Assembly (NCBI GenBank): GCA_905178155.1
Contig: CAJINV010000009.1
Span: 3,554,275 to 3,618,274, forward strand
Direction: 5' to 3'
Length of the DNA stretch: 64,000 nucleotides
Origin: Amoebophrya sp. A120
Taxonomy: Eukaryota > Protista > Dinoflagellata
The notes beneath the pieces are model-generated. The model had not been told where the DNA came from and did no database searches. It saw only the letters and a list, made by a program, of their open reading frames with translations. The translations under genes were made by a program, and so were the position numbers. Of this stretch, positions 1,636 through 63,954 are shown piece after piece. Position 1 is the stretch's first letter. Each line of letters begins with the position of its first letter.

Positions 1636-4600
1636 ATGACAACCTCGAGGAACTACAGTGACAAGTACAAGAGCCCCCGAAAAAGGGCCCGCCTACGCAG
1701 ACCTGGCCGCTCTTCAGTGAAAAACAACTTGCTCACAAAGCTGCTTGAAGCCGTGAAAGGACGCATCCAGGACCTACAGAGAAGAGTACTAGATCCCTTT
1801 TTCCAAGAATCACGACGTAATGCTAAAGGTGATAGGGACCGTCAAGAACGCAGCTGGTTTGCTTTTCCAGTTTCGGGAGTAGGACCGGCCACTTCGACGT
1901 CCCCGGGCAGGAAAATGCGAAAAAACATCGATGCATGCAGCTCCTGTAAGGCGAGAGCGAGACGGACCGCCACGCATGGGCATCAGCGAGGACGGCGAGA
2001 AACGTCTGATCACATGAGCGGGAGGACTGTGAGCACAAGAACTAGCGATAACTCATCGTGTATTTCTCCCCGATCATTGCAAAATGCCGTAGGCTACAGC
2101 TGCGGTTGCCGAACAAGGTGGAGAAGGAGAACGGCACAGAGAAACGGAGTTGCAGCTGGTGCTACAAGCGGTGCTGCGACAAGGGCAACGACCGGAATAA
2201 TAAATGGGGCACCTGAAGATGTAGGAGCGCGGCGTAGTTGCAAAACGATCTCTTCGACTAGAGTCAGAGACAAGAACCTACCAAGCCCCAGCACCAGCCT
2301 CCACTGCAAGAACCTGATAAACCCCTTTCACCCGAAAGAGCAGTTCCCAATATTCCTATCCCTGTTCCTCTACCTCCAAACCTTCCTCAACTTTACCTTC
2401 GCCGCCTACTTCCACGTCCCGCCAGTCGACTCCACCTGGGTCCGCCCACTCATCCTGCCCTGGGAGCCGGTACGAGGGACGAAGGACGCGATTCTAGTCA
2501 CTTGGACCACCGGCTGGAACCCCAACGCCGCAGTTCTACGCTCGGTGTTGCAACGACGCTACCCCGTCGCGATCGGGTCCATGAACATCGATCTGCGGAA
2601 CAGGAACCAGGAATCCGCTACTTGGTACAACTCCACCGAACAATTCCCAGGATTTTCGCCCTGGGAAACGGTGTACGAGGGTCCGGGAAAGCAGTTCGAG
2701 AACACAAACCTACTCCCCGGCCATCCCTACGAGTTCCGGGTAAAGACGATCGGGCGGAACATTTTGAAATCAGTCCACCTCGGCGAGAACCCAGACACGG
2801 AGTCCGAGTGGTCGGTCCCGCAGATGGCCCACACGAACTACGACCCGATCCGGGAGCGGTTTCCGATCTTACTCCAGGGGATGTCGGCGCACAACCCGGA
2901 CTACGCCATAATCGAAATCGACCGGATCCAGGTTTACAGAAGAAGGGACGAGAAGGGCTTGGTTTTGGCGGTTTTCAGTAGGTGGAACATGCAGCTGATC
3001 TGGTATAAGAATTTTTTTTTTGCTAATTATCCATTGTACTGCGCGGGTGCATGACAGCTGTTGCCTTGCATCGGCGTTACGCGTGACAAATTATCATATT
3101 TTATCAGGTTGAAAACGTACAACACCTTCAACTATCCGGGGGATTCGAACGCGATGGCAAAGGACATTCGAAGATTATGGATTGCAAATATGTCTGGGTC
3201 TGAAAGATTCTAAACTTGTAATGCTGTCTCTGGATTCTACAAGAATTTGTATTGCATGACCAGCAAGAGGACTCCGGTTTGTGCTACGCGGAGAGGGCAT
3301 TTGTCATCCGGTACAGGCATCACAAAGTCCTCTAAAAATATGTGATGCTTGGGCATGCATCACAAACATCATGGGTCATTCAAAATATTATATGCATGAC
3401 AAACTTGGCAATCTTCCAGACCCAGACACTTTTGCAGTTGATAAAGATTAGATCAGTCCCATTTCATCGCGGTTGTCTCCACCGACGCGTGGGAGTGGAA
3501 CGTGACGCCGAGCCTGATAAAAGCCATGGAATTCTGCGGGGCCTTCCACTTCGCCACCTGGAGCCGGAATTACGGCGGGAGCCACATCAAGATGCCCACG
3601 CAGACAGGGTAGAAGAGGATAGGTTTTTTGATTATCTTCTCGATCTCCGAGAAGACTAACTTAGTCTTCTAACTAAACCTTAGTAAGGTTTCTACGCATC
3701 ACAACTGCTGTGTCTGTAGCAGCATCATGCTGCGTGCCAAACTCGCAGCTGGGAAAATGTTTCTGACTTCTTGTGAAAATCAAATATGTAAATCAGTTTT
3801 GACGTCGACCAAACCTCGAGCCAAAAGGGTTTCGGCAACCCCTACGCCTTCTGGGGCATTCCTGGTTCCGGAACCGGGATGGGGTTCGAATCCGTCGCGT
3901 GGCCAACCTCCGCTTACCTGATGCAGAAGCTGGCGCCAAACGCGATCGTGCGGCTGATTCTGTACATGGACTACGTGGTTCGCCACTACTTTGTTTCCCT
4001 CCCGTCGGTCCAAACGGTGTCTACGTCGTTTCACACGAAGGCTTTACCACCGACTCATGAGTCGTTGCACAACCCCTACACGTATGCACAGCGGCAGCTG
4101 GTGTGCGAAGGGCCGAACTGCAACGAGTACCAAGTCGGGGTAAAATCCTACATCCAGGAAGACGACTTTTACAAGGTCTACAACGGGGAACTCCGGGTCC
4201 ACATGGACAGGTTACTAGAAGCGAACCGCACCGTCGACCCGCATTACTACCACTTTTTCCTTTTCACCAACTCTTCCATCTACAAATTCGACCCCAGACC
4301 CGCGGAAACGAGAGTAACGGAACTAGAGCGGGTGTGGGGCGGGCCGTCGGAACGGTTTCACTTCAACGTGTCGGCGCAGGCGTATCAGCTGTCCGTGTTC
4401 CAAGAAGCCTTGCCGAGCTGGTTTCCGGAGAGAACGGGGATCCCTATGCTGTGCAAAAGTATCGTACTCGTAGCAATTGCGTTGATGCATGACAAATCTC
4501 TTTCTCAAGGTAAATCAGCATTACAAATTCGATTCGATTCGTAATGCTGCGCCAATTTGTAATGCAATTTATACTAGTACGATACTTGGTTTTGCAATGC

Positions 4601-5014
4601 ATAATTCCGTATAGGAAGCGATACTGCCCGGACCTGTTCCGGTCGGATCGGTTTGACATCAACCCGATAACATGCAGAAACACCTCCCGCAGGCCGACGA
4701 ATGAATCGACTCTCTCCCCAGACAACTCCTGTTGCGACTACTTGGACTGGAACGTGGGTGGGGACCCGAGCAGGGATTATTTCCTCGGGTTGAGGTGCGG
4801 GGTCGGGGTGGTACCGACGCTGTGTAACGAAACATTGACGAGTTTCTTACCCTCCATCTCGCACAAACCACCCTTCAACCACACGATGGGGCTGGGAACG
4901 CCATTGCCGCCGGTGTTTTCGAAACTTCCCCCCACGCAGTCGGTGATGGCCGCCATGCTGGGCTTCCAAAACCCGTTTCCGAACGGGCATTTTCACCACT
5001 TGGCAACGGTGTGA
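1636..5014 (+). CDS. Fibronectin type III + ILEI/GG-type-like domain protein (spliced; start uncertain)
   Basis: FN3-like segment WETVYEGPGKQFENTNLLPGHPYEFRVKT..SEWS. Spliced continuation GLVLAVFSRWNMQLIWLKTYNTF..AMAKDIRRLDQSHFIAVVSTDAWE..PYAFWGIPG resembles ILEI. GT-AG introns 3003-3107 and 3609-3796; introners 3176-3443 and 4445-4603. Confidence 0.65.
3176..3443. mobile_element. Introner family A (TIR ~TATCAAATGCAAAAATGTCTGGGTCTGGAAG)
   Basis: TSD AAGAT/AAGAT, TA termini; join RRLDQ. Confidence 0.9.
4445..4603. mobile_element. Introner family B (TIR ~TATnnnTGCAAAAGTATCGTACTCGTA)
   Basis: TSD ATCCC/ATTCC; join TGIPYRK. Confidence 0.85.
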
Positions 5015-5044
5015 TGAGGTGGTGGTGAATCGGGAATAAGCAGC

Positions 5045-7809: not shown

Positions 7810-10800
7810 ATGGGTCAACTTCTCAGTTGTTGCCCGCGCCGTGGCGCGACTGAGGCTTCCGCGAAGGTCACTCCTGCCAAACCCGGAGTTCTAGACCGGT
7901 CTGATGACCTCTCGAATATTGCGGTCGCCGGACCACCCATAACGGCCACGGCGGTTCTCTCCGAGGTCCCCTCCGATGTGGACAAACAGAAGGACTTGGA
8001 GAGAATTCAGCTCACCACCGCGTCTACGACCGTTTCTGATGTAGAGCTGCCGGACGTCCTATCCAGGAAAAAACACCCAGTTCCATCCAATTTGTTATGC
8101 AGAACATGCATAAGCTTAAGCTGCAGTGTTTGTCATGCAAAAAATGGATGGGTATGGGTGTTTTTTCCTGGATACGTCCCTGTCGAGAAGCAATTCATTC
8201 CGCCCCCAGCCACTTTCCTCGACCTCCCGCCGGAACTCCTCATGACGATCTCCGAGTTCATTTCGAAGAACAAACGATCGCTCTGTGTGATTTCAAAGTC
8301 GTTTTTCAAGAACGCGAATTTCACCGCCTTTCCGAGGAACGAACTGATTTTGGAAGCGTGTCGCCGGGGATACGCGGCGTGGCTAAATTTGGTTCTGGTG
8401 GACGAGGAGAATGTTGCAACAATTGTGGATGAAAACGATAAAACGGCTACATTCCTTCCAGTCATCCCTGAACAACTGTTAGAAAAACTTTCCTCCATCT
8501 ACGACCGCTGTAAGATGACGATTTTTCACCACTCCGTTGAGTCCGGAAACGCGGAGACGGTGAAATTCTGGATCGATTTGTTTTCCAAAACAGCGAACCC
8601 AAATCTGGAATTGTTGGAAAAATTGCTAAACTCCCAAGACGTGTGGAAGTGCGTTCCGATGCACCGGTGCCGAACCGCGGAGATCGCGACATTGCTAACC
8701 ACGGTGAAAGCAACAGATCCACAGAACAAAAGCAAGGAAATCAAGATCAAACCCAAGCTGAACCTCGTGACCCGGGCGGATGTGAAGGACACGCTCATTC
8801 AAGCGGGGGATTCCGTGGGTCATGTTGCAGTCCGGTATGATAAACCAGAAATGCTCCAGGCATTAATCGACCAGATGAAGCAGACCGGCTTGGATTTGAA
8901 CATCAGCAATCGAAACGGGGACTCTCCTTTGGACATCGCGGTCGATCTGAAAATGCCGGCTTGTATCCTGTGCAAAAGTATCGTACTCGTATTGCAGTCA
9001 TGCATTTACAAATCTTTTTCTCAGCGTAAATCTGCATTACAAATTTTATTTCGCATGCTGAGGAAATTTGTCATGCATTTATACGAGTGCGATACTTTTG
9101 CAATGCATAGCTTGCGGATCCTTACTAGTGAAAGCAAACGCAAGCCGTGCGCAATGGTCCGCGCGGAAAATGACCTGGTACCAGGTATGGCCTGCTCAAA
9201 CGTTACAATCTCAAACGTTACAATAGAATCTGAGATTTGTCTTGCATGATGGACATGACAGACTCGCAGACCATTCCACTTTCTGCAATACAAATTTCGC
9301 CAGATTGTAGTGCGCATTGGGACTCCAGAACTTGTCATGCGCAATCCTATGAGAGTTGGCTAGATCATGCACTCTTGCATCACAGATTTCAATATTCTAT
9401 TGTAACGCTTGAGATTGTAACACCTGAGCGGGTTATACCAGGCAGTAGAGACGAAAATGGTGTTTGTAGTGGAGTTATCAAACGTAAAAATGTCTGGGTC
9501 TGGAAGAATGGAACTTGTGCTGCTAAATCTGAATAATCCAAAAATCTGTGTTGCGTAAGTGCCAAAAGCTGTCCGCTTTTGACCAAGTTGGGAGGGAGTT
9601 TCTCGTGCAGGAAAGGCATGACAGAAACCTCAAAGAATCTGTCATGCTGGGTCTCGCATTGCAGACCTCATGGGTCATGGAAAACCTGCATCACAAATCT
9701 TGCATTCTTCCAGACCCAGACATTTTTGCATTTGATAGGAGTACATGAAAACGAAGGGTCTAGCAGCTCCCGGCGGGGTGAACTTCCAGCAAAACAACAG
9801 CACGGGGGCTCCTGGGGGGACGGGATTATCAGGACATCAGGGAACAAACAACAGCGAAACGGGGGAAGCGGCGCTGCATTTGGCGTGTAGCTCGTTTTCT
9901 AGTGAAGACGGTAGTCTCGTCGTCCCACTGGTCGCGGGAACTACAGGGGTGCAGCACACAGCTGTGCACCCGATAAAAGCAATAGACACCGGCGTCCTCG
10001 TCCTAGACCCCGAGATCTGCAAAATCCTGTTGGATTCCAAAGCGGACGCAACTTTACGCGATAAGTCCGGGCAAACGGCGCTGCACAAAGCGTGTGTCTC
10101 AATGCGGAACGTGTTGGGCTGCAAGGATGGTATTAAGCACTGCCACAAAGATCATTCGCAAGAGGCTGCAAATAAAATGCGCGACAACGAGAAGAAGGTC
10201 TTACAAACCTGTGATTTTTTGTTGAAAGCGAATCCGCGGACTGTGGCGTACCAGGACAATGAGAAGTGCTCCGCTTTGATGCTAGCAGCAGGCTCTGGCA
10301 GCTTGGAGCTCTTGAAGTTACTGATCAGCTACTGCAGTGCAACCAATCTAGAGAGGGAAAGTAGCGGTGTCGCGGGAGCAGGAGCAACATCAACATCTAC
10401 ATCATCCACTCCAACAGCGCATCAATCCGATTTATCGCCCTCGAAACTACCGCAAAACAGCAGGTCGCAAGACCCGGAGAAGTTGATTCTCGAGTCCCGG
10501 GACGTGCAGAAAAGGAATTTGCTCCACTACGCCTGCACGTTCGACAATGTGGAAGTGGTGAAATTTCTCATGGAAAACTACATTTTGAACGAAACAGAAC
10601 ATCCTCAAAACACGACGCCCACATCAAGTACAAATTCAATCAAAAACCGAAAATTACTGACCACCGCCGTGGACGAACGAGAGCGGATTCCCTTCATGAC
10701 GGCCATCGTCTCCCGGGCGAGAAATGTTTTACAGTATTTCCTCGAATTAGAAAAGCAGAGACCAACCACATCGCTCATCACAAAACAAGTGGATCAGCAG

Positions 10801-16752: not shown

Positions 16753-17503
16753 ATGTTCTGCTGCGTCCGCTACGGGCTCGAGGAGGACAGCAAAACCTTC
16801 TTCAACCTAAATTGCGGCACCGCGGTTTTGCAAGACTTTATCGAGTCCAAAGCTCTGAAGCAGATCAAGCTCGACATCACGAAGCAGAAGGAGATTCACC
16901 GAAAGCAAATCTCCACCCTGGCACGGCAGCTGAACGCACACAGCAAGCATCTCTCTATCCTGCAAAAGAGAAATCCCAACGCAACAGGAGCAACCGTCGC
17001 GGGTGGAGGCGCTCCGGGGGACGAGGAGACAGGCGCTGGGGACAAAAAAGAAGAGGAGCAGGAAGAAGAGGAAGTGGATGAATACGCAGCACAGGATGCA
17101 AAAATCGAGGTTCTGCCGAAGGATAACATGGAGACAGTGACCAGTTGGATCGAGGGGACGGAAGGGGAAATTAGGGACAGGTATCATCGTAGTTCTTCAT
17201 GACGACAATCTAATGGATGCACATGTTCATGACAAGGTCTAGGTGGAAGTAGGCCGGATCTTTTCCTCTCAGTCAGAGTGTCATGCTCGCACCACTTTCA
17301 CTACGGTAGGAAAAAAGAAAAACCTAAACTACCTTCCACATCTACTGTCCATCATACATCAACATTACAGGGAAGCCGCACTGGTAGCATTAGACGAGGC
17401 AGAAATCGCGTTCCAAGATGTCGAAAAAGTGGACCTCGTCGATTCAGCCACGCAAGAAAAAGTCTCCTTCCGCGAACTGTTCCCGGTGCATTTACGCTCT
17501 TGA
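16753..17503 (+). CDS. Small protein, N-terminus resembling CXorf65/C22orf15-type family
   Basis: MFCCVRYG..FFNLNCGTAVLQDFI. GT-AG intron 17181-17370 joins in frame to ..VDLVDS..; the 3' end is uncertain. Confidence 0.45.
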
Positions 17504-19535
17504 GAGGGTAGTTCTATCGGTTGTATGACTTCTGTCTGGAATCGCGGTCCTATGCAGTTAGAGTCACTTCTTGTTTTCCTCATTGTGATGATGTCCCAGC
17601 AAGAACCAACATCAAGCTTGAGCTTCATCGCTGTTTGTCGACAGCACACCGACGCAAGAACCCAAGACAGTTTTTCTTCTGATAGAAGATTTTTTTTCCT
17701 TCGCATACCCGTTGCCCGCAACCGCTTGCCTGCCACTGAGAAGCACGACGGATCTGATAGGTACTGAACATAATTCACGCAAGTAGATCTAATTGCACTT
17801 CAGCGTTTGCGTTCTCAGGTTATTGCAATTTCTTTGACCTTCTTTCATCATCTTTATCTGTGCAGCCGGGGGAACAAGTAGGACAAATTGTCATGCAAAA
17901 GTGGAACATACACGCACTCGCACAGGTCTGCGTGGCGAGGGCGTGGATCCGCTCCCGCTGACGTTCGCGGTGCCAAAAGTCGTGCGGTCGGCCGAGGTCG
18001 AACAAATGCTGCTGGAGGGGGTGTTGGCGGGGAGAAGGTGAGCTGCAGATGAGATGAGACTGCAGATGGATGACACTGCTGCAGCTGGAGGATCATCCTC
18101 ATCCTGGGAACAATTCCTTATTTGCACTGTGGTACTGCTTCGTCTCTGTTGTGCATTCGAAGACCGAAGATGAAGTAGTAAGAAACAAAACTGAAATGAA
18201 TCCACAACTACTAAAGAAGATCAGGAAAAACTACAGGAAGCTGCGCTTATGTTTTGAATGAATTGGCTAGACTATTGCTTTCCTTGTCTACTTGTGTCCT
18301 CGCAACACTGAAAAATAATGTTGGACGATACGCACCATAGCCCTGATAGTGCTTCTTGTGCTGCCTGCCTCTAGTACCGGCGGGTAGAAATAGAGCGTTG
18401 CAAAAAGTTCCTGCGTACTGTTCTGCACAACAAGTCTGTCACTGAGCTTCTGCGGAACGTGTGCTGGGGGTTGTTGTGTCGAAATACCTACTACATTAGC
18501 CACAGTGGATTTCGTGCTAGAGCTAGTTGTTGGAAAAATTGTTTAAAAAAGAAGAGTGGTTGGTAGTTCTCGGGCGAGGACGAGATTGCAAAGAAGCAAA
18601 TCGGAGTAGATGACAGAACCTCAGGAGTAGATCTCTAATATCATTATCACACGCAAGCTGATGTCAAGCCTACTGTCTGCGGTGCATAAATTCTGGTACG
18701 ACTGGAGGTGGTCGTGAAGACCTGCTGCAGGAGCAGGAGTTCTGCAGCAGGAACAATGTAAAAAGTCTTTTTGGGTGAAGAAAGATTCTACGTAGAAACA
18801 TGAAAGTGATTCCCTGCAGCTCGTAGTCGTAGTTGGGACCGTCCGTCTCTGAACTATTACGGTAGACTGTGTCCGTTCGTAGCGGGAACTAGTATTTACA
18901 CTTCGTCTGCGTAGTTTGTTCGCAAGAACAATAGAGCAACCACGAGAATACAAAATATACACGTCGAACGCCAAACATGAGGGAATGCACTGCTGGAGCC
19001 GGTTTCTCGCCCAGATTTTACCTTCAGCCACCAGCCCCACCGCCCTGGCTGTTCGTGACCGGTGGACGATTGCAGGCCGGTGGCTGTGTGTCATCTCTGT
19101 CTGAGCTTGATGCTCTCTCAGCATGATCGAAGACGAACATGGCAGGAGAGGACCACGACAACGACCAGCCACTATCTGACCGAGGTATGTGAAGACGACT
19201 TGGGCAACGAACAAGTGAATACGACGAAAGCTGGTGCGCAGGGGATCGATACTAGGAAAGGGTCCTTCTTCTACTTATCACATCTTCAAACTGCTGCAGT
19301 AGAACGCTAGCCTCATCGTGTCCCCGGGGATTTGCTTTTGCAGCTTGGACGCCTTCTGACGTAGAAGTTCTTGTTTCTGGGTAAGAACAAGTTTACGTAG
19401 TCACGAAGACAAGAACCGCTGTCATCACTACGTAGCTGCGCTGATCAAAAAGAAAGATCTGAACTACTACACGATGAAGTAAATGCGGACTCCACTTCCC
19501 ACCTCGCCTCGACCACACAGAGACTGAAAAACATC

Positions 19536-24554: not shown

Positions 24555-24772
24555 AAAGAAAAACGGGGAGGATTAGGATACTAGGAAGGTGGGCGCGGAG
24601 GTCGCACTTGGTCCTCGGCGTAGAGGGTGGAACATTTGGTGTCATGTTCAACCAATTATACTTTTTTTCAACACGTTCACGTTTACAAATACAAACACAA
24701 AGCTTAGGCTTGCAATGCAGGCTGACGCAGCCGAACGAGCGGACGCTCCCCGGCAACCTGCTGGCTACAGCT

Positions 24773-24974
24773 TATCAAAGAAAAAAAGTTCGTCACGATC
24801 ACTCATGCGCATTTTTGCAATACAAAATTGTTTGCCATGCGTGAAAATGCATCACAAACTTCATAAGGGATTTCCCTAGTGTTTCTGCAATACAAGGAAA
24901 GTTTGTGGCGCTGGGAAAATTTGTAATGCAAAGCCTGCAAGTTAGTGACTGTGACAAACTTTTTTCTCTCCATG
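24773..24974. mobile_element. Introner family E copy outside coding sequence
   Basis: TSD CAGCT; right terminus TG; sister copy at 44688. Confidence 0.85.
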
Positions 24975-35500: not shown

Positions 35501-35731
35501 GTGCCAAGAGGCAAAGGGTGGATTGGGTATTTTGTATGGCAAACGAGGGGGAGGGGGAGTTGTGCACTGTCATAGCCTCTCTGGCTGATGCAGAAATTTG
35601 AGAAGCAGCAGAACATCTTCAAGATTCTCTTCAACAATAGCAAGTACGCGGAAGGGTGGGGCAGCGCGATCGGCGGGACACACAACGTGTTCGGTGGCGC
35701 AACGTCGAGCAAGGAGCTGAGGAAACTGTAG
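32540..35731 (+). CDS. Divergent S1/P1 nuclease-like protein with C-terminal membrane anchor (start uncertain)
   Basis: WMVNLVVDLHYPFNLGF, KLWTSM, spliced WASETTKIACDIY, KRMEEAAKHVVIFL; hydrophobic tail LCVAAVLIPAFLWLM. Confidence 0.6.
34532..34755. mobile_element. Introner family J (TATCCAAGAAAAAAA..GTGTAA)
   Basis: TSD GATCG; join TKIACD. Confidence 0.88.
34836..34990. mobile_element. Introner family B
   Basis: TSD AGTTT; right terminus CA. Confidence 0.85.
35356..35574. mobile_element. Introner family H (TIR TATGAGAGTGCACAACTCCCC)
   Basis: Clear TIR; flanks ATTTC/GCCTC diverged. Confidence 0.85.
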
Positions 35732-46857: not shown

Positions 46858-49800
46858 ATGCCCGGTCTCGACGACGACGATGGTCCGAGCCCTGCTGCGC
46901 GTCCCACCCGCGGCGGCGGCGGCGGTATCATCCAGAAGTCGAAGACCTTCGCGTTAAAACTCGGGAAATCACGCACCTTCGCGTTGGGCGGCGCCGATGG
47001 CGAGGTGGACCCTTATGACAAGAAGCTCCAGCAACTCCAATCCGAGTACCGCGGGCCGAGTCGGGCGGCCCGGTTAGCAACCCGGTTTAAGAGGGAAAGG
47101 GAGAAGGCGGAGGCGGCGTTTCAAGCGCGGCGGATTCGGGCGCTGCGGATTTTGGATCACCCCTTGTTCGAAGGTGTGGTTTTCCTCGCAATCATCGTGA
47201 ATGCGGTGTGGATGGGCTTCGACACCGCGAGGCTGGAGGAGACCGAGGGAGATGAGGAGGCCAGCAGACCATTTTACTTCATGATCATCGACACGCTGTT
47301 TATCCTAGTGTTCGGGGCGGAATTGGTGATCCGGATCCAGACCTACAAGAAGATGTTTCGGGACTTCTGGGATTGCCCCGTGATGAAATGGTGGAACCGT
47401 TTGGAGTCGATTCTGCTCCTGCTCTACATGGTCGACTCCTTCGCTCCCGCGGGGAGTTTAGACGGAGTTAAAGGGTTGTCGGTGCTGCGGTTGGGTCGGG
47501 TGACGAGGCTCGGAAAACTGTTGCGCGTCATCCCCGGGTTTGACATCATTCTTGGCACTTTCATGGAGGGGCTGTCGCACATGATTGCGGCCTTAATGAT
47601 TTTGATACTGTTCATCTACGCCGGGGCGATGCTGTTGACGATTTGGTACTACCAAGTGATGAGTTCAAATTTGCGGGACGACTTCGAGCCGATATGCGGG
47701 GCCCTGTCGACTTCGATGTTCACCACGTTCAAAATGCTCACACTGAATGATGAAGGTATAGGGATGAAATAAACTTGCCGTGATGTTGCGCATCCTCCGC
47801 ACCAGGAACACAGAATTGTTTTGCTTTTGACGAGCAAGAAGAGGTGCAACACAAAGAACGCAGCGCATTGTACTAGTCATGGACAACTCTGGCTTCTAGT
47901 ACACCCTGCTGATGATGTTTTTCCGTCGTCTTCAACATCACAAATATAAATCTGTCCAGGTATTACCGCCTTGCAGCGTATTCTCACCCACCGCGAAGTT
48001 TCCTCCCTAGAGTCCACCGTCATGCTGTTAATTCTCGGGTCCTACATGGCAACGGGCGGGCTGACCATTCTGAACATTCTAGTCGGGATCTATGTCGACG
48101 TTGTGGACCAGGTCCGGCAGAGGGAGTACGACTTAGACACCATGGAGAAACTGATCGACATTTTTCACCTGATCGACGTGAAAGGCACCGGCACGATCAC
48201 CCGCGAGGGCTTTCGGGAGCTGAAGCGGTACGTCGATAAAGGGATGCAGGTGGACTTGGATCTCGAGCTGCTGGAGTTAGGATTTGACCTCCTGGAATTA
48301 GAACGGGAAGAATTTCTCAAACACCGCATATGCACTGCAAAAGTATCGTCCTAGTATGAATTGCATCACAAATTGACTTAGCATTGCAGATTTAATTTGT
48401 AATGGATGCGGATTTGCCTTAGAGAAAAGATTTGTAACGCGTCATTCTCATTGCAATTGGTACAACGACGAGACAAATCCGATACTTTTGCAATGCATAC
48501 CGGAACCGTTTAGGCAATGTCGACGCGGAGCACCGAGCGGCGGAGCGCGCGGAGCACGGAGGACAGCCGAGCAGCCCGGGTGGGTCGCAGGGGAATAAAA
48601 ACGGGTCATCTTCAAACGATATTCACAAGGAATACTACCAGACCAGTACGTCGCTGCACGAAATGAACTTGCCGCAGTTTCTGAAGATTGGGTTCAAATT
48701 ACTGCACCCGATAGAATCGCAGGAGGTGCTGTCGATTCACAAGAATGTCTGCTCTTTGCTGAAGCTCCTGGACGCTTTGCACTACGACATGCTGAATAAG
48801 ACCCCGATGCTGAATTACGCGGCCGGCGAGTCGCTGAAGAAGTACAAAATGGACATCATGAAGGGAAAAGTGAAGGAAAACCCAAGTTGGACGGAAAAAG
48901 AGAAGGAAATGAACTTCCGGAAACTCGCACAGTACCCGATCCTCTACCCCGCCGGGTCGATCCAGCACGCGGTGCAGCATCCGCTCAACGAGTTATCCTG
49001 TGCAAAAGCATCGTATTCGTATTGCAATCATGCATTACAAATCTTTTTCTTCGGGTAAATTCGCATTACAAATTTTATTTCTCATGCTGAGGAACTTTGT
49101 CATGCATTTATACGAATACGATACTTTTGCAGTTCATACGAGTGCGCACGGTACAAGGAAAACATCCAGTTGAGACGCCACAAGCAGGAGATGATGCAGG
49201 CAAGCGAGAAGCGGGATGCGGAATTGCTGTTTATGGACTGCTATGAATTGCAAAAGTATCGTACTCGTACAGATTGCAGTCTGGCATGACAAATCTAACT
49301 TTCTACCTCCTTCAGCATGGCAAACTGCGTTTTTGTTTTTGCGAAATGAATTTGTCATGCGATTTATACTAGTATACGATGCTTTTGCAATGCATAACTG
49401 CTTGGAATCGCGCGATCCGGATTTGTTTGTGAAATCGCGAGAAGATATGAAAGTGCACAACAACTCCCATTCCCCCTGTCATTTGTATTGCATGGACAGC
49501 AATACAAACATCAGCACACATGGAGCCTGTGCATGACAAATTCATACGCCTAGTGTAGTACTGTTTGGGATTCCGGATCCGGAAATTGTCATGCAAACAG
49601 TGCCACAGGGAAGCGCTTGGATTTGGGGTTTTGCATGACAAATGAGGTGGAGCGGGAGTAGTTGTGCACTCTCATAGAAGACTACAACCCCGACGATGTG
49701 ATCAACAATCCGTTCACTTATGAAATGCAAAAGCATCGTACTAGTATAAATCGCATGACAAATTTCCTGAGCATGAGAAATAAAATTTGTATTGCGGATT

Positions 49801-53312: not shown

Positions 53313-56300
53313 ATGTTGGCAGCGCAGGTGGCAGCGGCCGGTGGGGTCGCAGCCCAGCAGCGCATGAGCGGCTCGATGGGGGCACCCCCGCAGATGCCCC
53401 AGCAAGCCCACCCGGGTAGCAAGATGATGCACGACCAAGCGAGCTACGGGTATCCTAAGCAAAAACGTCCCCACGACCCCATAGTCAAGCTGGTAAATCT
53501 GCAAGACAATTCTCCACGCTTTGGGAGGTGTGCATGACAAGTTCCCATCTGCAGTGTAGTGCTGGTCAGCAAGGGCAGACGCATGAGAAAGCCAGTTTAT
53601 CATCGTGTTTACAGCATTCTTGCAAATTCCTAAACACAATTGGAAATGCCTCTCATCATTATGGAGATGCGCATTACAAATGTTCCTGTCATTGCGCAGT
53701 TGCATGACAGCTATGGAGTAGGGACGTTTTTACATAGGATAACAGGGCACCCACCTCCCTCATTCCGCAGACACGGTTCCGGGGCAGGAGGGGCGCTACG
53801 TTCTACGAGTTATCAAATGCAAATATGTCATCTGGGTCTGGAAGATTGCGAGATTTGTCATGCTAGTCTGGCATGACTCTGCACTGCACTCTGTATTGTG
53901 TGCTGGCCACCAAGAGGCTCTCTTGCCTGTCATGCAAAAGCGCACTTTCTCGTGCGAAATACGCATCACACAAGCACGAAAAAACTTGTCATGCTTGGCG
54001 GCGCATGATTACAGAGCACTTATTGGTCACGGACTTGCATCACAAGTTTCCAGACCCAGATGACATTTTTGCATTTGATACGAGTTGAGAAAAGACAACT
54101 GCTTCACGGACATCGCCATGGCGTCCTGGTTATGCATTGCAAAAGTATCGTACTCGTAGTAATCCCATTCATGCATTACAAATTTCTTTCTCAAGTTAAA
54201 TCCGCATTACAAATTTGATTTCTCATGCTGAGGAAATTTGTATTCGCAATTCATACTAGTACGGTACTTTTGCAGTGCATACTGGTTCGAGAATTTCGCG
54301 CTCCTCGTTATCGTCCTGAACGCACTGTGGATCGGGGTGGAGGTTGACATAAACGACGGCACCAAAGACGCACCGCCAGAGGAGCTTTTTGTCGTGGTGG
54401 AAAACGTGTTTTGCGTTCTGTTCACGGCCGAAATCTTCGTCCGCCTCATGAGTTACAAGAAGGCGCTTTTCTTCTGCACCGACAAGGAGCTGCGATTTTG
54501 GAACATCTTCGACTTGCTTTTGGTACCACGCTAGTACAACGTAGTTTGGAGGTTGTCACGCAAATTTCCTGTATGTAGAAATTGTGAAGTTCTTGTAATA
54601 ATCCACCTCATGATCCTGGTGCTCTATCGCGCACAGTATAATAATTGCTATTCAAAGGGACTACTTCTACTACACACCGCGTTGAATTGATTCTTGTAGC
54701 TCGAAGTGCTGTTGAAGACACCCATCATGAAAAACCTACCTCAGGTGCTGTTGATGGTAATAGAAAACTGGATTCTCTCCTGGGCAATGGGCGACTATGG
54801 ATTGCAAAAATGTCTGGGTCTGGAAGATTGCCGTGTTTGTCATGCATATTTGGTATGGCCAAGGATGTCTGTAATGCATGACCTAGCATCACAGATTTTT
54901 ACAAGGCTTCCTGATGCCTATTCCGCATGACAAATTCCGTCCCCGCGTAGCACAAACTGGACTCCTCTTGCTGGTCATGCAATACAAATTTTTTTCGACT
55001 CCCAAGCTAGCATCACAAGTCCCAACTTTCCAGACCCAGACATATTTGCAATGCATAGCGACGAGGAAGGTGCCATGAGCTCGCTGTCCGCGTTGCGTCT
55101 GCTCTATGAATCTGTCAGGATTGAAATCGTCAAAGTTGAAATGGTTTGTCATGCATAAAATGCAAGGCATGAAGTGCCTGTCTTGCCGGGGTGGCAAGTG
55201 AGGCAGATTGTGGGCCTATTTAGGGTTTGGGATAGAACTGCTAAAGGAGCATGACAAAAGCACTGCTCTGTGCCCAAACAGCATGACAAATTGGATTTCG
55301 GTGCTCCGGAAATTTGTCATGCGCCGCTTGAAAATTGGTCTCCCAAGTGGTATCCATTCATGACACATTATTTCAACTTTGTCGATTTCAAACCTGACGC
55401 GTCCATATGCTCAGGTTGCTGCGTATCTCCCGAATCTTTCGAATGGTCCCCGAGCTCGGAATGATGGTCAAATCGATGGCGGCGGCTGCAAGGTACATCG
55501 GCTCATTGTTGAATCAGCTCCTCACATACTTTGGACAAAAACAATGTCAAGAACCAGTGGATGAACTCGAATTTGTTGTGCTGAAGATGCAGAATGTTGT
55601 GACGTGAAGATGTGATAACCCACCTTTGTCATATACGATGTCATCTTCATTCATTTTTGTAAATTTAGCATGACAATAAAAAGAAAAACTACCACCTCTC
55701 CTAGGTCCGTGTCTTCAACGATGGTGCTGGCAGTCGGGCTCATGTACGTCTTCGCCGTTTTATTCACGCAGTGGGGCTATGCATCGCAAATATGTTCTTC
55801 GGGTTTGGAAGATTTGTCATGCGAAACGACTTCGTATTTGAATTTCTTCTACTTTCACGAAAAGAAGTCACATGATCTGGGCTTCTATGTTTGTGATGCG
55901 TCGAGAGTGCGGTTTCTCCCCAGCTTTTTTTGTTTTTTGAAGTGCTGAATGAATAATCTTCATCCTCACAATGCAGCTTGTAAAAATCTAGAGCAGCCCG
56001 AGGACAACATGTTTGCAATGAATATCGGCAAAGAAAAGGAAGACTTCAATGGAAAATGCCGAGACTTGCCAACGCCGTGCGAAGACGATACAAACTACTT
56101 TGGCTCCCTCGGCTGGAGCTTTATGAGCTTGATGCAGATATTGGTACCATCTTGATTTTTTACGATCTCTTGATGCTTCATCGTTTTGGGCAGATGAAGT
56201 AGCGTAGAAATAACTGGAGCTCTGTCATGTGAAAGGAAATTCGTGCCTTTTATTCTTCCCAAGAAATCCGTCCCTGCTTCTTGACACGCGACGAGTATGT

Positions 56301-59300
56301 TTACGTATACATGAAAAAAGTAAAAGTACAGATTATACACGGAACGAAAGCGATGATGAAGCCATCCAAAATAAAGTTGCAACTGATCTTTTCCCCCAAA
56401 TAAGGTATACGACGACACTTTCGCGCTTATCCGCAAGACTTTCCTGGCCAACGCACTCATGGGTCTGCTGCTGATCATCTTCATCCTCGTTGGTGCCTTC
56501 ACGGTGCTCAACATGCTAATTGGTGTCTATGGCGTTCTCGAACGTTACATTCTGAGCTGTTACATGAATTTGTGATGCAAGAACCGCAACAGTGAACGGG
56601 GCAAGCTTGCAGCTTTCGCATCACAAATCCGGCACAGATTTAGGCGCTGTTTAGCCCTTCGGGGATTTGTCATGCGAAGTGGCTTGATTGTCTGGTGGTT
56701 CATGATGTTTTTCGCGGTTCTGACCCTAGATCTCCTGCGTCCGAAGCTGCTTGCGGCGACGGTGCAAAGGTTTTTGAAGTGGCGCAGTCGGGTATGCATG
56801 ACAAATCATGTGACATCAGTTGAGAATGTAACGTTTGAGAATCCCATAGTGTCATCTGCGAGATTGTGTCGACCACAAAAAAGGAAGATATGAACACGAA
56901 GCTTTTCACCTCCGCACAACAAGAATCGGAACTACTACACGTGCCAATCTTGCATGAGAAGTACAACTAGCAGCCTGTCAAGTGTTGTAAGTACCTTTTG
57001 CTTTTTCAGCAACAGAAATAACCTTCGTCTCGGTTTTAGCAAGAACTTGCTGTTTTTTATCCAGGTCCACCTCCACCCGAAATTTGTGATGCGCGATGTG
57101 CTTTGGTGAAACAGGTTTGTGTTGCATAGGAGAGGAAGAGAAGCTACTCATGAACAAGGTCGAGGATCTTTTCGCGCAAATGGACGCCGACGAATCTGGC
57201 ACCATCTCCCGGGAAGAATTCGAAGCCAAGACCGCACTCCTAGAGAAGCTGGGCCTGGACCAGTCCACAATAAGACTAGCCTTCGAACTCATTGATGACG
57301 ACCGCAGTGGAAGCTTGGAAATGCAGGAATTCATACACATGGTATGAAATTTCATGCGATTGTTGTAGTTGTTGCAATACAAATATTAATTAGCATCTTC
57401 CACCGGCGCAGGCATGATGTTATTTTTGATTGTAGCGTTGTTGTGAGATCACTGTACGAACAAATATGACACGTGAGCATGATCACAACCACAAGAAGCC
57501 TCAGAAGCCTCGTTCGCTTGATGTTGATGAAGTGCGGGTAAATAAAAATATGGTTTTGCGGATCATCATGATAGAACCCGAACAGCAAAAGCGGAGCAAC
57601 ACGAAAATCTACACGTGAACTTCTAGCAATATGAAAACGAAAACGCATTCACAAAAACTACACTTAGGTTTTCCGGCTGTTGCACCCCCCGACGTCACAG
57701 GACCTTTTGGTGATAAAACGAAATTTAGCGAAGCTGTGCGACTCCCTCGGTTGCGACGTGTTCGATGCGCCCCCACCCATGAAGGCCAGCAAGAAGAGCG
57801 GACGCGCGACCTCGGGCGGCGGAGGCAATGGCCCCTCGGACGGGGGCTCCGGAAAGGGGGAGGGGGAGAAGGAAGAGAAGGTGGCGAGCGGGTTTGTCAA
57901 GAAGTCAAAGACTATGGCGTTCTCAACTGTTACATCTTCAACTGTTACATGGATTTGTGATGCAAGAATGAAAAAAGAGCAAGGAGGAAGATTGCGCCTT
58001 TTGCATTACAAGTTTGGTGCAGATTATAATGCTATCTAGTGCGTCAAGAACTTGTCATGCGAAGCAGCTTGATCCTGTAGATGTGTATTGTAGTTTTGCA
58101 TTACAAATCCATGTAACAGTTGAGAATGTAACATTTGAGAACGCCATAAAGACCTTCTCGGGGATGGAAACCAGTGTGGCGCAATACAGCATCGATATGC
58201 ATTGCAAAAGTATCGTACTCGTACTAATTGCAACTTCTACGCATGACAAATCTCGTCCTTAAGGTAAAACAGCATGACAAAAAAATCCAGTTCTCATGCT
58301 GGGAAAATTTGTAATGCATTTTTTATACGAGTGCGATACTGTTGCTGTGCATAATCGAGCATGTGGAGCAACAAATCAAAAACGCAGTGGCCCTGGCGGT
58401 CAAGCAGGAGGTGGTGTTATGGAACAAAAGCCTCCAAAGTGTGTCACTGTCGTGTCTGAAAAAATTATTCTTTTTCTTTCTCAGTGTCACCCCGGACGAC
58501 TACACCGGATGTTGACACTACGACAACCTCTACTGCTAGTAGCCGCGCAACAGAAACATAGAAAGTGGTCGAATTATATTCAATGTTTCAGATTGCTACA
58601 CAAGCACACTTTTTTTTGTTCTTGCATAAGCGCCGAGACTAGGGGCAGGAGGAGGAGCGGGCGGCTACGGTGGCTACGATGCCGGCGCGGTATTTTTTTA
58701 CTATGTGGACATGGGATCTACATCTCGATCTAGGTGTGCATGACAGAATTTTTTACAAACGAAAATCGCCTCCGTGTCCGTGTGACTTGTCAACGTGTGT
58801 GAATTGACGAGATAAGTAAACAAAAGTGATTTGCCATGCACAAATGTGAAACAAACACAGATGTCAAACTACGGTGGTGGGGCTTCGAACGAAAATTTGG
58901 AGAGCATCAAGCGCGAAGTCCGGGGCTTGCAGGATTCCGTCCAGCGGGTGGATATGAATTGCAAGAGCATCGTGCTAGTAGTACTTAATCGCATTACAAA
59001 CTTGCTCAGCATGACAAATGGAATTTGTGATGCTGTTTTACCTTAGTAAGGAGACGAGACTCGAATAGCTTCGCCCGCTCGGTGTGACATCGCAAACTTG
59101 CGCTAGAAGGAGCATTTTTCACAAAGTTCACCTCCCGCCGCGGGACGCGCACGCTTTGCGTATCACCTGGGAACAACGTTGCTGCGTCTCGCGCTGCATC
59201 CCCCCGCGGCCTAGTGGATGCGTTTTCAAAGCATGTCGAGCCGGAAACGCGGCTAGAGACGCCTTCGCAGTGCGTTTCTGGTTGGAAATCTAGCAAGCGA

Positions 59301-61837
59301 CGCCGTCGCAGTGCATTTCTAGCTGGAAACCCACCTAGCGACGCCGTCTCAGGGCGTTTCTAGCTAGAAAGCCAGCTAGCGACGCCGCCCCGGTGTGTGT
59401 CCAGCAGGGAATCCAGCTAGCAATGCCGTCCCAGCGCCTTTCTAGCTGAAAGGAAATACGGCCGGAAAGGCAGCGGCAGCGTGTTTCCGGCTAGAGATCC
59501 AGGCGGAAAGGCATCGCCAGCGCGTTCCCAGAACGAAATCCAGCGGGAGAGGCATCGCCAAAGCGCCCCCGGCTGGAAGAAATTCAGCCGGCCGCGTCTT
59601 TGCAGAGTATTGCTAGCGTGAAATGGAGCCGGGGGCGCCTTTTCTTTCAGAGCATTCCTAGCGGGAAACCCAGACGGAGGCGCGTTTTTTTCTAGCCGGG
59701 AGGAAATCCAGCAGGGAGGCAGTGCATTACTTAAAGAGGCATCCGCAAGCAACGCGCCTCCAGCTGGAAATCCATCGAGGGCGCCTCTTCGATGAGTATC
59801 CAGCTGGAGACGCCGTGGCAATGGAAATCCAGCTTGCTGGAAACGCCTTTTCGAGGGAAATCCAGATGGAAACGCATCGAGAAGGCTTTTCCAGCGCTTT
59901 CCCGCCCGACCTTTTCAAAGTGTTGGAAGCTGGATTTCTAGTAGAAGACGGCTTTCGATTTCTAGCTTGGAATCCAGGCGCGGGGAACAGTTTGAAAAGG
60001 CATCCGCGGCGCATTGTTAGCTGGGATTCCAGGTCAAGGCGCCTCAAGGTGTTGCCAGGTGGATAGATTTGCGGGCGGAGATGCCTCGGGGCATTTCCAG
60101 CTGTCAAGAATCGCAAGGCAGCTGATTTCTCTTCGGTTTCCCGGGGTTTCTTCCCGCGTTAGCAAAACTCTTCTGGCTACCCGGGGAAAGGCTTGCCTAG
60201 AAGGATATTGGGTAGGTAATGGGAAGCTATCGGGAAGGGGTGGCAGAGCTGGAGCTCTTCTCGGGTTGTTGTGCTTAGCGCGGCTCTTCAGGCTACCCGG
60301 GGCAAGGATCTTCTAGTAGGGTAGCGGGAGGGTGTTCATTGGGATAGTGGAAATGTGTTGGGAATTTGTTTTTTTTTTCCCGAGTTGCTGCGTTTAGCAC
60401 AGTTATTCTGGCTACCCGGGGCATGGGTTTTCTAGTAGAATGCCTGGAAGGTATTGATGGAGGCATCCATCTGCGCCATCGTTGCACGCCTTCCAGGTGC
60501 AGCGTCCGTGGCTGCGGTTGCCGCCTTCCGTCTCCGTCGGCTGCTCGCGATGTCTCCGTGCCCGCGATCAGCTGAAGCTTTTTTTCCTTAGGGATTTCAT
60601 TAAGAAAGTGACACGCGAGCGCGCGGATCCGATTGACCCCCTACGTCACTCCCCCCCGCCCCTTCGAGATGATGACACTGGGCCCCAATCTGTATGAGTA
60701 GTTTTTATTTTTGGGATGAAGACTTACATGCGGGGGGCCCTCGCCCCCCCCCGCGCCCCCCCCCGCCCTTTCGATATGATGACACTGCGCCCCAATCCGT
60801 ATGAATAGTTTTTATTTTTGGGATGAAGACTTACATGCGGGGGGCCCCCGCCCCCCCCCGCGCCCCCCCCGCCCTTTCGATATGATGATATTGCGCCCCA
60901 ATCTGTATGAAAAGTTTTAGATCTAAGATTATAGCTTTAAGATCTAAGATCATGACTTTTGACATTGCGCCCCGATCTGTAGGGATGCTTTTAAGATCTA
61001 AGACGATAAGAGCCAAGATTATGGCTTTTGAGATGAAGACTCACATGCGGGGGGCCCTCGCCCCCCCCCGCGCCCCCCCCCGCCCCTTCGACGTGATGTT
61101 ATTGGGCCCCAATCTGTATGAGTAGTTTTTATTTTTGAGATGAAGAACTACATGCGGGGGGCCCTCGCCCCCCCCCGCGCCCCCCCCGCCCTTTCGAGAT
61201 GATGACACTGCGCCCCAATCTGTATGAAAAGTCTTTAGTTCTAAGATTATAACTTTAAGATCTAAGATCATGACTTTTGAGACGCTTGGTCATAGCTTTA
61301 AGATCTAAGATTCATTATGAGATGCTTTAAGATTCAGATTAGATGACTTTGAGACGCTTTTTAGAATCTAAGATGATGACTTTTGAAATGAAGACTCCAG
61401 AATTCTGCGATAGGTTTAAGATTTCGTAAGATTTGAGATTGAGATAAGATTTGATAATAAGATTGGCGATTCGAATAAGATTTGAGACTGAGCTAAGATT
61501 TAAGATTCAGATTGAGACTGAGACTTGAGATTGAGACTTGGTGTGAAATTGAATTACTCAATTTGAATTATTCATGAAGTTGAATTATTCAATTTGAATT
61601 ATTCACGAAATTGAATTATTCAATTTGAATTATTCAGAAAATTGAATTATTCGTGAGTCTTGCGATGAAATTGTAGATATGACTATCAATTTGTCATGAT
61701 GCATAACAGCAATTGGTACGAGTGCGATACTCTTGCACTGCATAGTGGAAGTGGTGCTGCAAAATCTACGGGACAAACTGCAGGTTAAGCGACGGTCAAG
61801 CTCGCAGCAACAACAGGGAAACAACTCGTCACAGTAG
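53313..61837 (+). CDS. Second single-domain 6TM voltage-gated cation channel with two EF-hands; last exon lies beyond a 2.8-kb intron
   Basis: WFENFALLVIVLNALWIG; spliced S4 LSALRLLRLLRISRIFR; S6 TVLNMLIGVICEIV; EF-hands DADESGTISREEF and DDDRSGSLEMQEF; terminal join VQRV|EVVLQNLRDKL..stop at 61835-61837. Confidence 0.85.
53451..53741. mobile_element. Introner family K (TATCCT..G.AAAAACGTCCC)
   Basis: TSD ACGGG/ACAGG, which yields GT-AG ends. Confidence 0.87.
53811..54080. mobile_element. Introner family A
   Basis: TSD CGAGT; 3-nt insertion present in both TIR arms. Confidence 0.9.
54131..54281. mobile_element. Introner family B
   Basis: TSD CTGGT; join ASWFEN. Confidence 0.9.
54796..55057. 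mobile_element. Introner family A
   Basis: TSD GCGAC. Confidence 0.9.
55105..55407. mobile_element. Introner family F inside S4
   Basis: TSD TGCTC; join LRLLRLLR. Confidence 0.9.
55778..56024. mobile_element. Diverged A-like introner
   Basis: Flanks GGGGC/TCGGC; join TQWGKEK. Confidence 0.75.
56528..56848. mobile_element. Introner family C
   Basis: TSD GTGTC; join LIGVICE. Confidence 0.9.
56889..57128. mobile_element. Diverged introner (singleton)
   Basis: TSD GAAGA/GGAGA; imperfect TIR TATG(C)AACAC..TTTCACC. Confidence 0.75.
57913..58148. mobile_element. Introner family C
   Basis: TSD AAGAC. Confidence 0.9.
58196..58353. mobile_element. Introner family B
   Basis: TSD ATCGA. Confidence 0.9.
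58418..58628. mobile_element. Strongly decayed introner
   Basis: TATG..GAACAAAA termini; flanks diverged; removing element plus 5 nt restores frame. Confidence 0.55.
60645..61270. repeat. ~107-bp GC-run minisatellite with an AT-rich variant unit
   Basis: CATGCGGGGGGCCC..CCCCCCCGCGCCCCCCCC recurs at 60727, 60834, 61043, 61151. Confidence 0.9.
61545..61652. repeat. 31-bp tandem repeat built from the palindrome TTGAATTATTCAA
   Basis: About 3.5 units of GAAATTGAATTATTCAATTTGAATTATTCAC. Confidence 0.9.
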
Positions 61838-63321
61838 GGGGACGACGCGCGGATGATGTTCTTGGTGTCGTGATTTCGTCAAGTTTATTTCTCAGATGTT
61901 ACATACTCCTTGACAAGAACTACTCCCGGTGCTGTGAAAAAGTAAAAGACACGACATCGACAGTGATATATGGAAAAGCGAAAGAACTCGAAAATGCTAT
62001 GTACAAATGTCTATACCTACGATAGATTTGTTGTCCCTACAACTAAGGAGGTGGAGCGAGAAGATAGTTTTACCTCTGTGCATCAAGAAAGCAATACACT
62101 TCTGGGCTTCATCTTGAGGAGATCATTTTTTTACCCGACGAGGACAACTCCACCTAGTAGAAGATCAGCTTTTCTCCTTTTTCAGGCACAGCAGCATGAA
62201 AAGTGCTAGACCCCCAGCGAGATAGTGGTGTCCTAGTCTTCAAGGAGAACCAAAAATAGTAGTGCCGCAGTGGCTGTGGTGCTGCTTCTGCACAAAATGT
62301 TGACTCGGATAGCATCTATTTCGTCGGAGGTAGTTGTACCGTAGTACTACTAAGGTGTTATTGGTCATTTGATTTTCCACAACGAACAGAGCCGTATGAT
62401 CTAGACCCTGCTGTTGATTGGGTAGTTGCTTGTCGTCGTTCCACCCCCGGCGTCCCCGGCCACAAAAAAACACAGTACAGAGTTGTCGCAGTCATGCTTT
62501 TACTTCATTTCTACCTCCTTGCAGTACTATCCTAATATCTCCTCCTTAAATATAGTCTGTCAATGAAATATTGTGTTTAATTTATCATGAAAGTACGAAA
62601 ATGTATTGCAGCGAGCACGCGGCCGTCGCGTGCTTTGTTTATTATGTTTCCGAAATGAAATCACAATCACAAGCAGAAAGCACGAGCAGAACCTAACCTT
62701 TCGTAGGAGGGATTATATTCACGTAATAAAAAAAAATGCTCGCACAAAAAAATCATCCACTGTATAATTCTGTTGTGAATCTAGACCGCAGCCTGTAGTT
62801 GAAGCTTGTACATAAATTCGACTGAAGAGAACAACTTCTATAAGCGTGAGTATCAACTTGTTATGGTGCTGTACAGAGAAATAGAAGAAAAGCTTAAGCT
62901 AGTGCTTGACGAAGACGACGGAGCCGCCCAGGCGTCGTATCGGCTTGTAAGCACGCCGACGCCACGACGAAGCAGTGCTGGCTTTGTTGCGTTGGCCGTG
63001 TTCTGGAGGAGCAACCAGATGGAAAATCGTTGCAAGACCTACTTTCGGTTGCAGTGCCGCATCGGCATCCTCTCTGCGATGTCCTTGCAGAAGAAGTTAC
63101 TGCTTCATAAAAGGCGTATAATTTTTCATCGGTTTCGTCCTCACACCTTGGCTCCTCGTCCTCCTGCTGCTGTCATCAGGCGACAGGCGATTTTTACTCG
63201 TACACACAGCAGAGGTTCAGAAACTACTGCTAGTACCTCAATACCTCGGTTTTCGTCCTACTTCCCGTGCCCCAGAACAAAGACTCGTCGTACTCCCCTC
63301 GTCTCTGTGAACTTGTCGTTT

Positions 63322-63480
63322 TATGAGGCTCATGCTGTTTGTAATGACGGCTCATGGACAGAGTTTTCTCTGTCGTCGTCATGGACCCCAAAGCCTCTGT
63401 ATGAGGCTCATGCTGTTTATGCAAGACAAATTTCAGATTCTATTGTAACGTTTGGGATTGCAACATCTGAGCAAGCCATA
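63322..63480. mobile_element. Broken family-C introner (one TIR only) at the Top2 truncation
   Basis: 63420-63480 matches the reverse complement of the 9186 left end; internal duplication TATGAGGCTCATGCTGTTT at 63322 and 63400. Confidence 0.7.
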
Positions 63481-63954
63481 TCGTGCATTTGCACCGGGAC
63501 CCCGGACCCGTTATTCTCGACGGAGATTCTCCCGGTATTCGTGTCCATCTCAACTCTGATTTCGTCGCAGGTGCTGTCGCGCTGCATGTGGTCCGCGGCG
63601 TTTACCAGGATCTCGTCGAAGATTTTGTACAGGGCGGGACAGTACCTGATAGCAAAAGTATAGAGCTTCATCGTCTTCATGCATTACACGCCTTTGCCTC
63701 AGGCCGCGAGTTTTGCATCACAAATAATTGTTCTCGCCATGCAGTACAACAACTTCCTTATACCTGAGAACCCTCTCCTCAAATTTCTCCCCCGCTGCGT
63801 TCAGCACGAACATCTTCTCTTTCCTCTCCTGCCGGGTCCCCACGTACGTATCTGGCCGGGCTAGAATGTGCTCGTGGTGCGTCATTTTGGAATATTGCTG
63901 TTCCTCCTTATTTGATGCACCAGCACCACCGCTCTCTTTGGAGCTGCCGGTGGC
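63481..63954 (-). pseudogene. TOP2: Type IIA DNA topoisomerase (Top2) N-terminal fragment, apparently truncated at an introner
   Basis: Spliced QYSKMTHHEHILARPDTYVG..RVLRYCPALYKIFDEILVNAADH..ISVENNGSGVPVQMH; intron 63646-63763. No Top2-like continuation is visible downstream, and the 5' end lies outside the window. Confidence 0.7.

Follow-up and report, generated by a model that had tools for sequence, protein, structure and literature searches.

An internal box shared by introner families and GT-AG introns in Amoebophrya sp. A120

Introners and introns of the window

We analyzed a 64,000-nucleotide stretch of the Amoebophrya sp. A120 genome (the window; contig CAJINV010000009.1, positions 3,554,275 to 3,618,274), in which a short box, GCAT(G/T/C)ACAA, recurs inside introners and inside ordinary introns. 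The window contains 62 curated elements, each with TAT…ATA inverted repeats and flanked by a 5-bp duplication of the target, and 19 curated GT-AG introns that lack terminal inverted repeats (TIRs) and make up 23% of its 81 introns. All coordinates given below are window positions unless a locus is named.

The elements are the introners published by Farhat et al. 2021 (PMC7789003). According to the text of that paper, A120 has ~30,000 introners in about 1,954 families; their inverted repeats start with TAT, followed by seven variable bases and then As, and the elements have short direct repeats and are removed from mRNA without GT-AG borders. The TAT start with its A-tract, the direct repeat at the boundary, and removal from mRNA were all found here. 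The bases T, A, and T occupy positions 1-3 in 122, 123, and 122 of 124 ends, and most ends have an A-tract at 11-14 (A at positions 11-13 in 99, 107, and 109 of the 124). The target duplications contain 24 mismatches in 310 positions, and 44 of the 62 elements have perfect duplications and intact ends. All 62 are in transcribed regions (61 coding, one past a stop codon) and none is in the 15.7 kb of intergenic DNA.

Deletion of the elements, each with one target copy, and of the GT-AG introns gives 12 reading frames without internal stops; two of the spliced models are identical to deposited proteins at 594/595 and 990/991 residues. Two exons have 100% matches among the deposited A120 proteins. 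Contigs of runs X1 and X2, which we guess to be RNA and which cover only 19400-39300, skip elements plus 5 nt, with one target copy removed and with the lengths predicted from the curated coordinates. In these contigs, 542 nt of exon remain from the interval 22452 to 23664, 72 nt from 26631 to 27173, and 295 nt from 30325 to 31198; 28786 is joined directly to 28943, and 24767 to 24975.

When boxes are masked, 61 elements group into 17 clusters without mutual alignment (threshold 60; null maximum 40), and we worked with 19 element groups. Three single-copy groups are related to larger families, so the independent families are somewhat fewer than 19. Because TAT ends, the A-tract, and 5-bp duplications are common to all, the families probably form one superfamily. 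An earlier note on this DNA, made from the letters alone, had called the TIRs unrelated; they are not entirely so, since T at positions 1 and 3 (122 of 124 ends), the A-tract in most ends, and the duplication length are shared. The interiors, with boxes masked, cannot be aligned between families.

A box concentrated in introns

The motif GCATBACAA has 146 matches in the window, 79 forward and 67 reverse, as opposed to a mean of 2.35 and a maximum of 6 in shuffled sequence, so the box described in the earlier note is real and occurs in both orientations. Elements with TIRs hold 136 of these strict boxes (10.1/kb), including one from an element that runs off the window end, and the 19 GT-AG introns hold nine (2.75/kb; shuffle mean 0.22, maximum 2 in 1000). 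The 28.5 kb of exon contain a single strict box, at position 31250; the 15.7 kb of intergenic DNA and a 2.6-kb insertion within one element contain none. The rarity in exons that the note had remarked on is thus borne out, as is enrichment in introns over both exonic and intergenic DNA. Chance or base composition as the source of the boxes is excluded by the shuffle counts and the distribution among sequence classes.

The proposal that all families carry the box holds for 61 of 62 elements at the level of a weight matrix, but only 54 of the 62 elements, from 16 of the 19 groups, have the strict form, and the element at 58418-58628 has none. A fuller consensus is GCA(T/A)(G/T/C)(A/G)(C/G)A(A/G)(A/G)T. 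The central base is G, C, or T, with A in 9 of 493 sites. The commonest element end is GCATA, and one idea for the avoidance of A is that an internal copy might mimic a terminus. Fifteen element termini themselves score as boxes.

Constraint and geometry

Between copies of five families, box positions 0, 1, 2, and 7 are 93-99% identical, spacers are 55-69% identical, and the neutral expectation for sites chosen like the box positions is 74-83%. The central base is identical in only 46% of comparisons. The center of the outermost box is 35-57 nt from the element end at 103 of 122 ends, and same-direction boxes 31-33 bp apart, about three helical turns, are found in 10 of 19 group representatives (null mean 1.7, maximum 8 in 5000). 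Elements carry four to five boxes at fixed spacing, and this arrangement is kept along family lineages. To judge from these comparisons, the box is under purifying constraint. The suggestion that a trans-acting factor recognizes it gains support from that constraint, the fixed distance to the ends, and the fixed spacing of pairs.

Two other descriptions of the layout were set aside. A regular 16-bp lattice of box pairs was dropped, as opposed pairs occur at 15-17, 33-34, and 45-50 bp without a single period; a chromatin mark spread along the whole intron is unsupported, as long inserts within elements are free of boxes.

The box could also be an old repeat with no function, inherited from one ancestral element. 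The features common to all families (TAT ends, A-tract, and 5-bp duplications) and the kinship of three single-copy groups with larger families would fit such descent. Spacers have nevertheless diverged past alignment while the sequence and spacing of the box persist, and tolerance to change differs by position within the box. Enrichment therefore goes beyond shared ancestry; had it not, the earlier note's idea would have fallen by the note's own terms. Shared ancestry alone is contradicted by the constraint and the geometry, and we regard it as extremely improbable.

Related elements in metagenomes

A metagenome scan with the box-pair pattern found at least 130 loci, of which we analyzed the 38 long ones with element homology, leaving aside short (about 640-bp) loci and those without such homology. 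The loci belong to a sister lineage of A120, with 95% identity in one protein. The box is present in 118 of 120 elements, including seven unmatched to window families, and is 35-54 nt from the end at 183 of 233 ends. When elements that fit the scan pattern are removed, 31-33 bp is still the main spacing among the remaining 89 (55 same-direction spacings). There are 453 boxes in 41.8 kb of element sequence versus 19 in the remaining 95.9 kb, and several of these 19 would fit within candidate GTA…AG introns. Elements L013:3992-4200, L017:1067-1288, L046:1178-1348, and L066:2971-3179 have no BLAST match to window families, yet they have boxes 36-50 nt from an end. Eight matches to the box pairs in viral contigs all lack element homology, and no relative of the kelch gene was found in those contigs.

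Decay of the box in aging elements

We compared 202 copies of eight families with their family consensus, tallying non-intact copies that fit the scan pattern apart. Mismatches at fixed box positions rise from 2.8% (55/1953) in intact copies through 5.8% to 8.5% (35/414) in copies with damaged ends or duplications. Over the same series, well-conserved TIR positions go from 5.7 to 9.8 to 10.7% and spacer positions from 10.3 to 13.2 to 14.5%. As elements age, their boxes are lost at the same pace as the terminal repeats, a pattern that suggests selection while elements are transposed or copied. The earlier note had named neutral decay in old introns as evidence against recognition of the box, and decay at about the TIR rate is what aged full-length elements have.

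Boxes in GT-AG introns

The exact box GCATBACAR is found in 11 of the 19 GT-AG introns, one apiece (null 0.3), and a box within one mismatch in 17 of 19 (null 5.1), with centers 36-180 nt from the donor. On the plus strand, exact boxes are present in introns 3003-3107 (at 3049, with a one-mismatch box 32 bp downstream), 3609-3796 (at 3696), 34260-34361 (at 34306, with another 33 bp downstream), 55493-55704 (at 55668), and 58690-58860 (at 58738). Reversed boxes are present in 22455-22567 (at 22503) and 23036-23199 (at 23067), both in the kelch-RING gene, in 33618-33758 (at 33676), in 33962-34113 (at 34022; 34044 could also serve as an in-frame acceptor), and in 17761-17925 (at 17888), a probable GT-AG intron in an uncertain gene model. 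The minus-strand intron 63646-63763 has a box at 63715. Only one-mismatch boxes are found in plus-strand introns 17181-17370, 36757-36903, 47756-47959, 54523-54744, 56144-56404, and 57342-57667, and no box at one mismatch or fewer is found in 23531-23665 and 35066-35224. The five relic sites listed earlier (~3049, 34021, ~34306, ~55668, and ~58738) are all present, in GT-AG introns without a significant TIR.

Profile searches with box-preserving shuffles detect element homology beyond the box in 63646-63763 and, weakly, 34260-34361 (both family B), and at a lower level still in 36757 and 22455. The first is a family B introner that has been converted; it has a perfect TCAGG duplication and, at its 3′ end, a decayed TIR. 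The second is probably another such introner. No significant terminal inverted repeat was found in the GT-AG introns, and once boxes are masked they resemble neither each other nor the sampled families. The word relic thus suits two to four of the 19 introns but finds no backing in the rest, where the box is kept without its element. Many GT-AG introns may be older than the elements, since their 23% share in the window is close to the 19.4% of A120 introns that are position-conserved with A25 genome-wide, according to the text of PMC7789003.

The step from introner to canonical intron would be an easy one. Twelve of the 19 GT-AG introns begin with GTAT, that is, G plus an element start, and an element in a target that ends in AGG reads as a GTAT…AG intron. 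Elements 9186-9437, 42723-42890, and 53451-53741 (3 of 62) are in such targets.

In simulated neutral decay, a strict box together with a hidden Markov model (HMM) score below 17 bits occurs in at most 3.3% of cases versus 9 of 19 observed; for short fragments the simulated maximum is 10.7% versus 7 of 19 (p=0.0025). Conservation along lineages without selection after insertion is seen in full elements and not in GT-AG introns, and the aging and retention results pull in different directions.

One explanation takes the box as a transposase site only, with the GT-AG boxes as unselected leftovers of truncated elements or of unsampled families. The box geometry and aging pattern, the one converted and one probably converted family B element, the GTAT starts, the three elements already read as GTAT…AG, and the precedents of Herves, Emigrant/Lemi1, and P elements are all consistent with it. 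The simulations nevertheless fall short of the observed retention, and the dissimilarity of masked GT-AG introns and their lack of a TIR argue against leftovers. The two converted introns score like ~35% diverged copies, for which strict-box survival is ~5% in simulations, yet both keep the box. We judge this explanation distinctly unlikely.

At the other extreme, the box could be a host intron mark only, bound in all introns by a host protein that recruits or licenses splicing, such that only box-bearing insertions are spliced and tolerated. Its frequency in GT-AG introns, mostly without element homology, and its absence from intergenic DNA speak for such a mark, as does, indirectly, the possible age of many of these introns. 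The text of PMC7789003 reports that U1 small nuclear RNA (snRNA) was not detected in A25 or A120 and reports no transposase in A120, which also fits. The decay of four to five spaced boxes at the TIR rate in aged copies is better explained by a filter at copying, a non-canonical intron without a box is excised in a deposited model, and the 2.6-kb insert carries no box. A host mark alone is in our view unlikely.

A DNA site or an RNA signal

Boxes in elements have no sense-strand bias (92 vs 76, p=0.25), and the lone exact boxes in GT-AG introns are five forward and six reverse. We infer that the box is a double-stranded DNA site, since lone boxes face either way and two specificities would be required to read them in single-stranded RNA. 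The same orientations count against the guide RNA or single-strand splice signal that the earlier note had offered as possibilities. A spliceosomal cis signal would be read on the sense strand and would occur in every intron at a set distance from a splice site; neither was observed. The further suggestion that the box stands in for a splice-site consensus does not hold as an obligatory role, since no box is found in GT-AG introns 23531 and 35066 or in element 58418-58628, a non-canonical intron that the deposited model nonetheless removes.

An RNA-level signal could still take the form of an RNA-binding protein or guide RNA that reads the box, or of opposed boxes that extend the TIR hairpin and join the splice sites. 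The forward box contains GCAUG, which we take to be an RBFOX-type motif. Boxes in opposed orientation near the two ends complement each other, and in predicted folds 76 of the 168 element boxes are paired box-to-box; an added role in an RNA stem within elements would be compatible with these folds. Lone GT-AG boxes, in contrast, are partnerless (0 of 11 paired box-to-box) and face either way, and three letters at the central base would be more than wobble pairing to one guide allows. For a stem, complementarity would be enough, yet the families conserve the sequence itself. No Rfam family was matched in the window. We find an RNA-level signal quite improbable.

A proposed mechanism

The reading that we favor, tentatively and at just under an even chance, is that one double-stranded DNA-binding protein may have two roles, one in element copying and one in a host benefit at the level of introns. 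The putative protein would bind the element ends as a component of the transposition machinery; it would be an integrase-like transposase of the TA…TA/5-bp class or else a partner from the host. Copying would, at every round, select for boxes that are intact and properly spaced, and families with differing TIRs could therefore share one protein. Binding would also benefit the host by marking introns on the DNA during transcription; a single site would suffice for this, so surplus boxes in old elements would decay and lone GT-AG boxes would persist. Excision of the non-canonical introns would probably occur mainly through base pairing of the TIRs in RNA, as proposed in the literature, and not through the box.

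Several points weigh against a single protein with two roles. The boxes nearest the ends face outward in families A, C, and G and inward in B, D, and H, and it is not obvious that polarity could depend on the family in a rigid end complex. We found no binding protein for the box and no transposase in the window, and the text of PMC7789003 reports that none was found in A120. The aging comparison turns on small differences and 27 non-focal damaged copies. The case for host retention is built on 19 introns and on simulations from 16 sampled families, which leave lost families uncovered, where ~1,954 are reported. Three of 81 introns are without a box at one mismatch or at matrix level (58418-58628, 23531, and 35066), and the box-to-box pairs in predicted folds also stand on this side.

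It is possible, though rather unlikely, that A120 marks its introns on DNA, with a former binder of transposon ends co-opted by the host, docking on the box in introners and ordinary introns alike and guiding the splicing machinery. Such marking would tell the splicing machinery where introns are in a cell that seemingly has no U1 snRNA.

Comparison with known systems

The introner elements are already published, and the internal box is apparently unreported. The text of PMC7789003 describes terminal repeats only, with no internal motif, spacing rule, or motif in GT-AG introns. Full-text searches, the text of its supplement (figures not covered), and the supplements of PMC12130899 gave no description of an internal box, and the latter contain no box strings. 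There is likewise no description in the accessible text of PMC11282704, PMC11453091, PMC12005148, and PMC13326754. U1 is reported as present in Kv (PMC12005148).

Gozashti et al. 2025 (PMC12130899) describe A120 family 38 with "5-bp TSD, TA/TA Termini" and integrase-like open reading frames (ORFs). As described, it is like the window elements in its 5-bp duplication and TA/TA ends and represents a candidate class for the mobilizing enzyme, but it differs in length and number (about 808 bp, five copies). The IS3EU/GingerRoot elements (PMC10045372, PMC12730594) are described as having TA..TA (TAY..RTA) termini, TIRs >30 bp, an integrase-like DDE enzyme, and usually 6-bp duplications. The window elements have the TA..TA termini but duplicate 5 bp, not 6 bp, and therefore we do not file them in this group; no subterminal motif is noted in the accessible text of either paper.

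Subterminal transposase motifs for which binding was shown include those of the hAT element Herves (PMC3143072), the Emigrant MITE (a miniature transposable element with inverted repeats) with Lemi1 (PMC1636448), and the P element (PMC7776569). As described there, those motifs are short and repeated, and occur inside both ends at a set distance and apart from the TIR, as does the box. They are tied to the TIR of one family, whereas here one putative binding motif spans families that differ in TIR and polarity and also persists in host GT-AG introns. Non-canonical introns of Fritillaria and euglenids (PMC13326754, PMC11282704) are reported to be transposon-derived and without GT-AG, with TIR pairing proposed to align the ends. 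They are explained by altered RNA-level factors or structure, and the accessible text describes no strand-indifferent internal DNA motif.

PMC7789003 leaves as questions, in its accessible text, how A120 introners spread without a recognized transposase and how they are spliced without GT-AG ends or a detected U1. One motif with a strict layout in nearly all families could serve as bait for the missing protein and as a marker for autonomous elements. If the host also keeps the box in ordinary introns, a transposon signal would have become an intron signal, possibly with intron definition at the DNA level.

Individual elements and other features

Family A (9476-9737; ~262 bp, 14 copies) has other copies at 3176, 11259, 13503, 19811, 20574, 22710, 30331, 38079, 42947, 45068, 50658, 53811, and 54796, with eight in one orientation and six in the other in plus-strand genes. 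Its outermost boxes are ~45 nt from each end and face outward, and a second box is 31-32 bp deeper. From raw RNA run X8, only 92 reads map to the window, each of them matching part of one element end, and the window exons are uncovered; those on 22710-22741 match a family A end and run on into another locus that has a box directly after the TIR. Family B (27024-27172; ~150 bp, 17 copies) has inward-facing outermost boxes, with nine copies in one orientation and eight in the other in plus-strand genes; the copy named is missing from the RNA-like contigs, and others are at 4445, 8964, 20364, 30643, 31047, 34836, 38430, 42492, 48329, 48994, 49242, 49719, 51539, 54131, 58196, and 58953.

The smaller families include C (39448-39685, also 39964, 56528, and 57913, with 9186-9437 related), D (39152-39368, also 35356, 49446, and 50116), F (36967-37075, ~110 bp, also 8060 and 14182), G (41385-41694, ~305 bp, also 45376 and 55105), J (26638-26947, also 44178), and K (34532-34755, also 51282). 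Family H (28790-28940, also 21733) is the element at the 28786 to 28943 join, with one target copy removed. Family I (24773-24974, also 44688) is 3′ of a stop codon and is spliced out all the same (the 24767 to 24975 join). The single-copy groups, all with matrix-level boxes, are 21372-21682, 21118-21303, 40245-40455, 42723-42890, 53451-53741, 55778-56024, and 56889-57128.

Across the 62 elements, the left and right TIRs frequently mismatch over positions 4-8, with 40% agreement at position 7, whereas they agree in 97-98% at positions 1-3 and 11-12; this would leave an internal loop beside the splice junction.

The region 58411-58860 is not one 450-nt GT-AG intron; it consists of the decayed plus-strand introner 58418-58628, a short exon, and a 171-nt intron, in agreement with the deposited protein. 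The family B copy at 58953-61744 is split by the 2.6-kb box-free insertion (about 59047-61688), which contains tandem repeats of 41, 107, 21, and 31 bp and two ORFs that gave no match in a Pfam search. The deposited model removes this intron over its full 2.8 kb.

A one-ended element at 63300-63480, kin of 9186-9437, has an internal tandem duplication and breaks a minus-strand gene with an ATPase domain (Pfam HATPase_c) that resembles topoisomerase II; the next exon was not found. Intergenic repeats unrelated to introners are a ~23-bp unit present five times at 730-1100 (one inverted) and a ~35-bp unit present three times, at 5050, 5790, and 7135.

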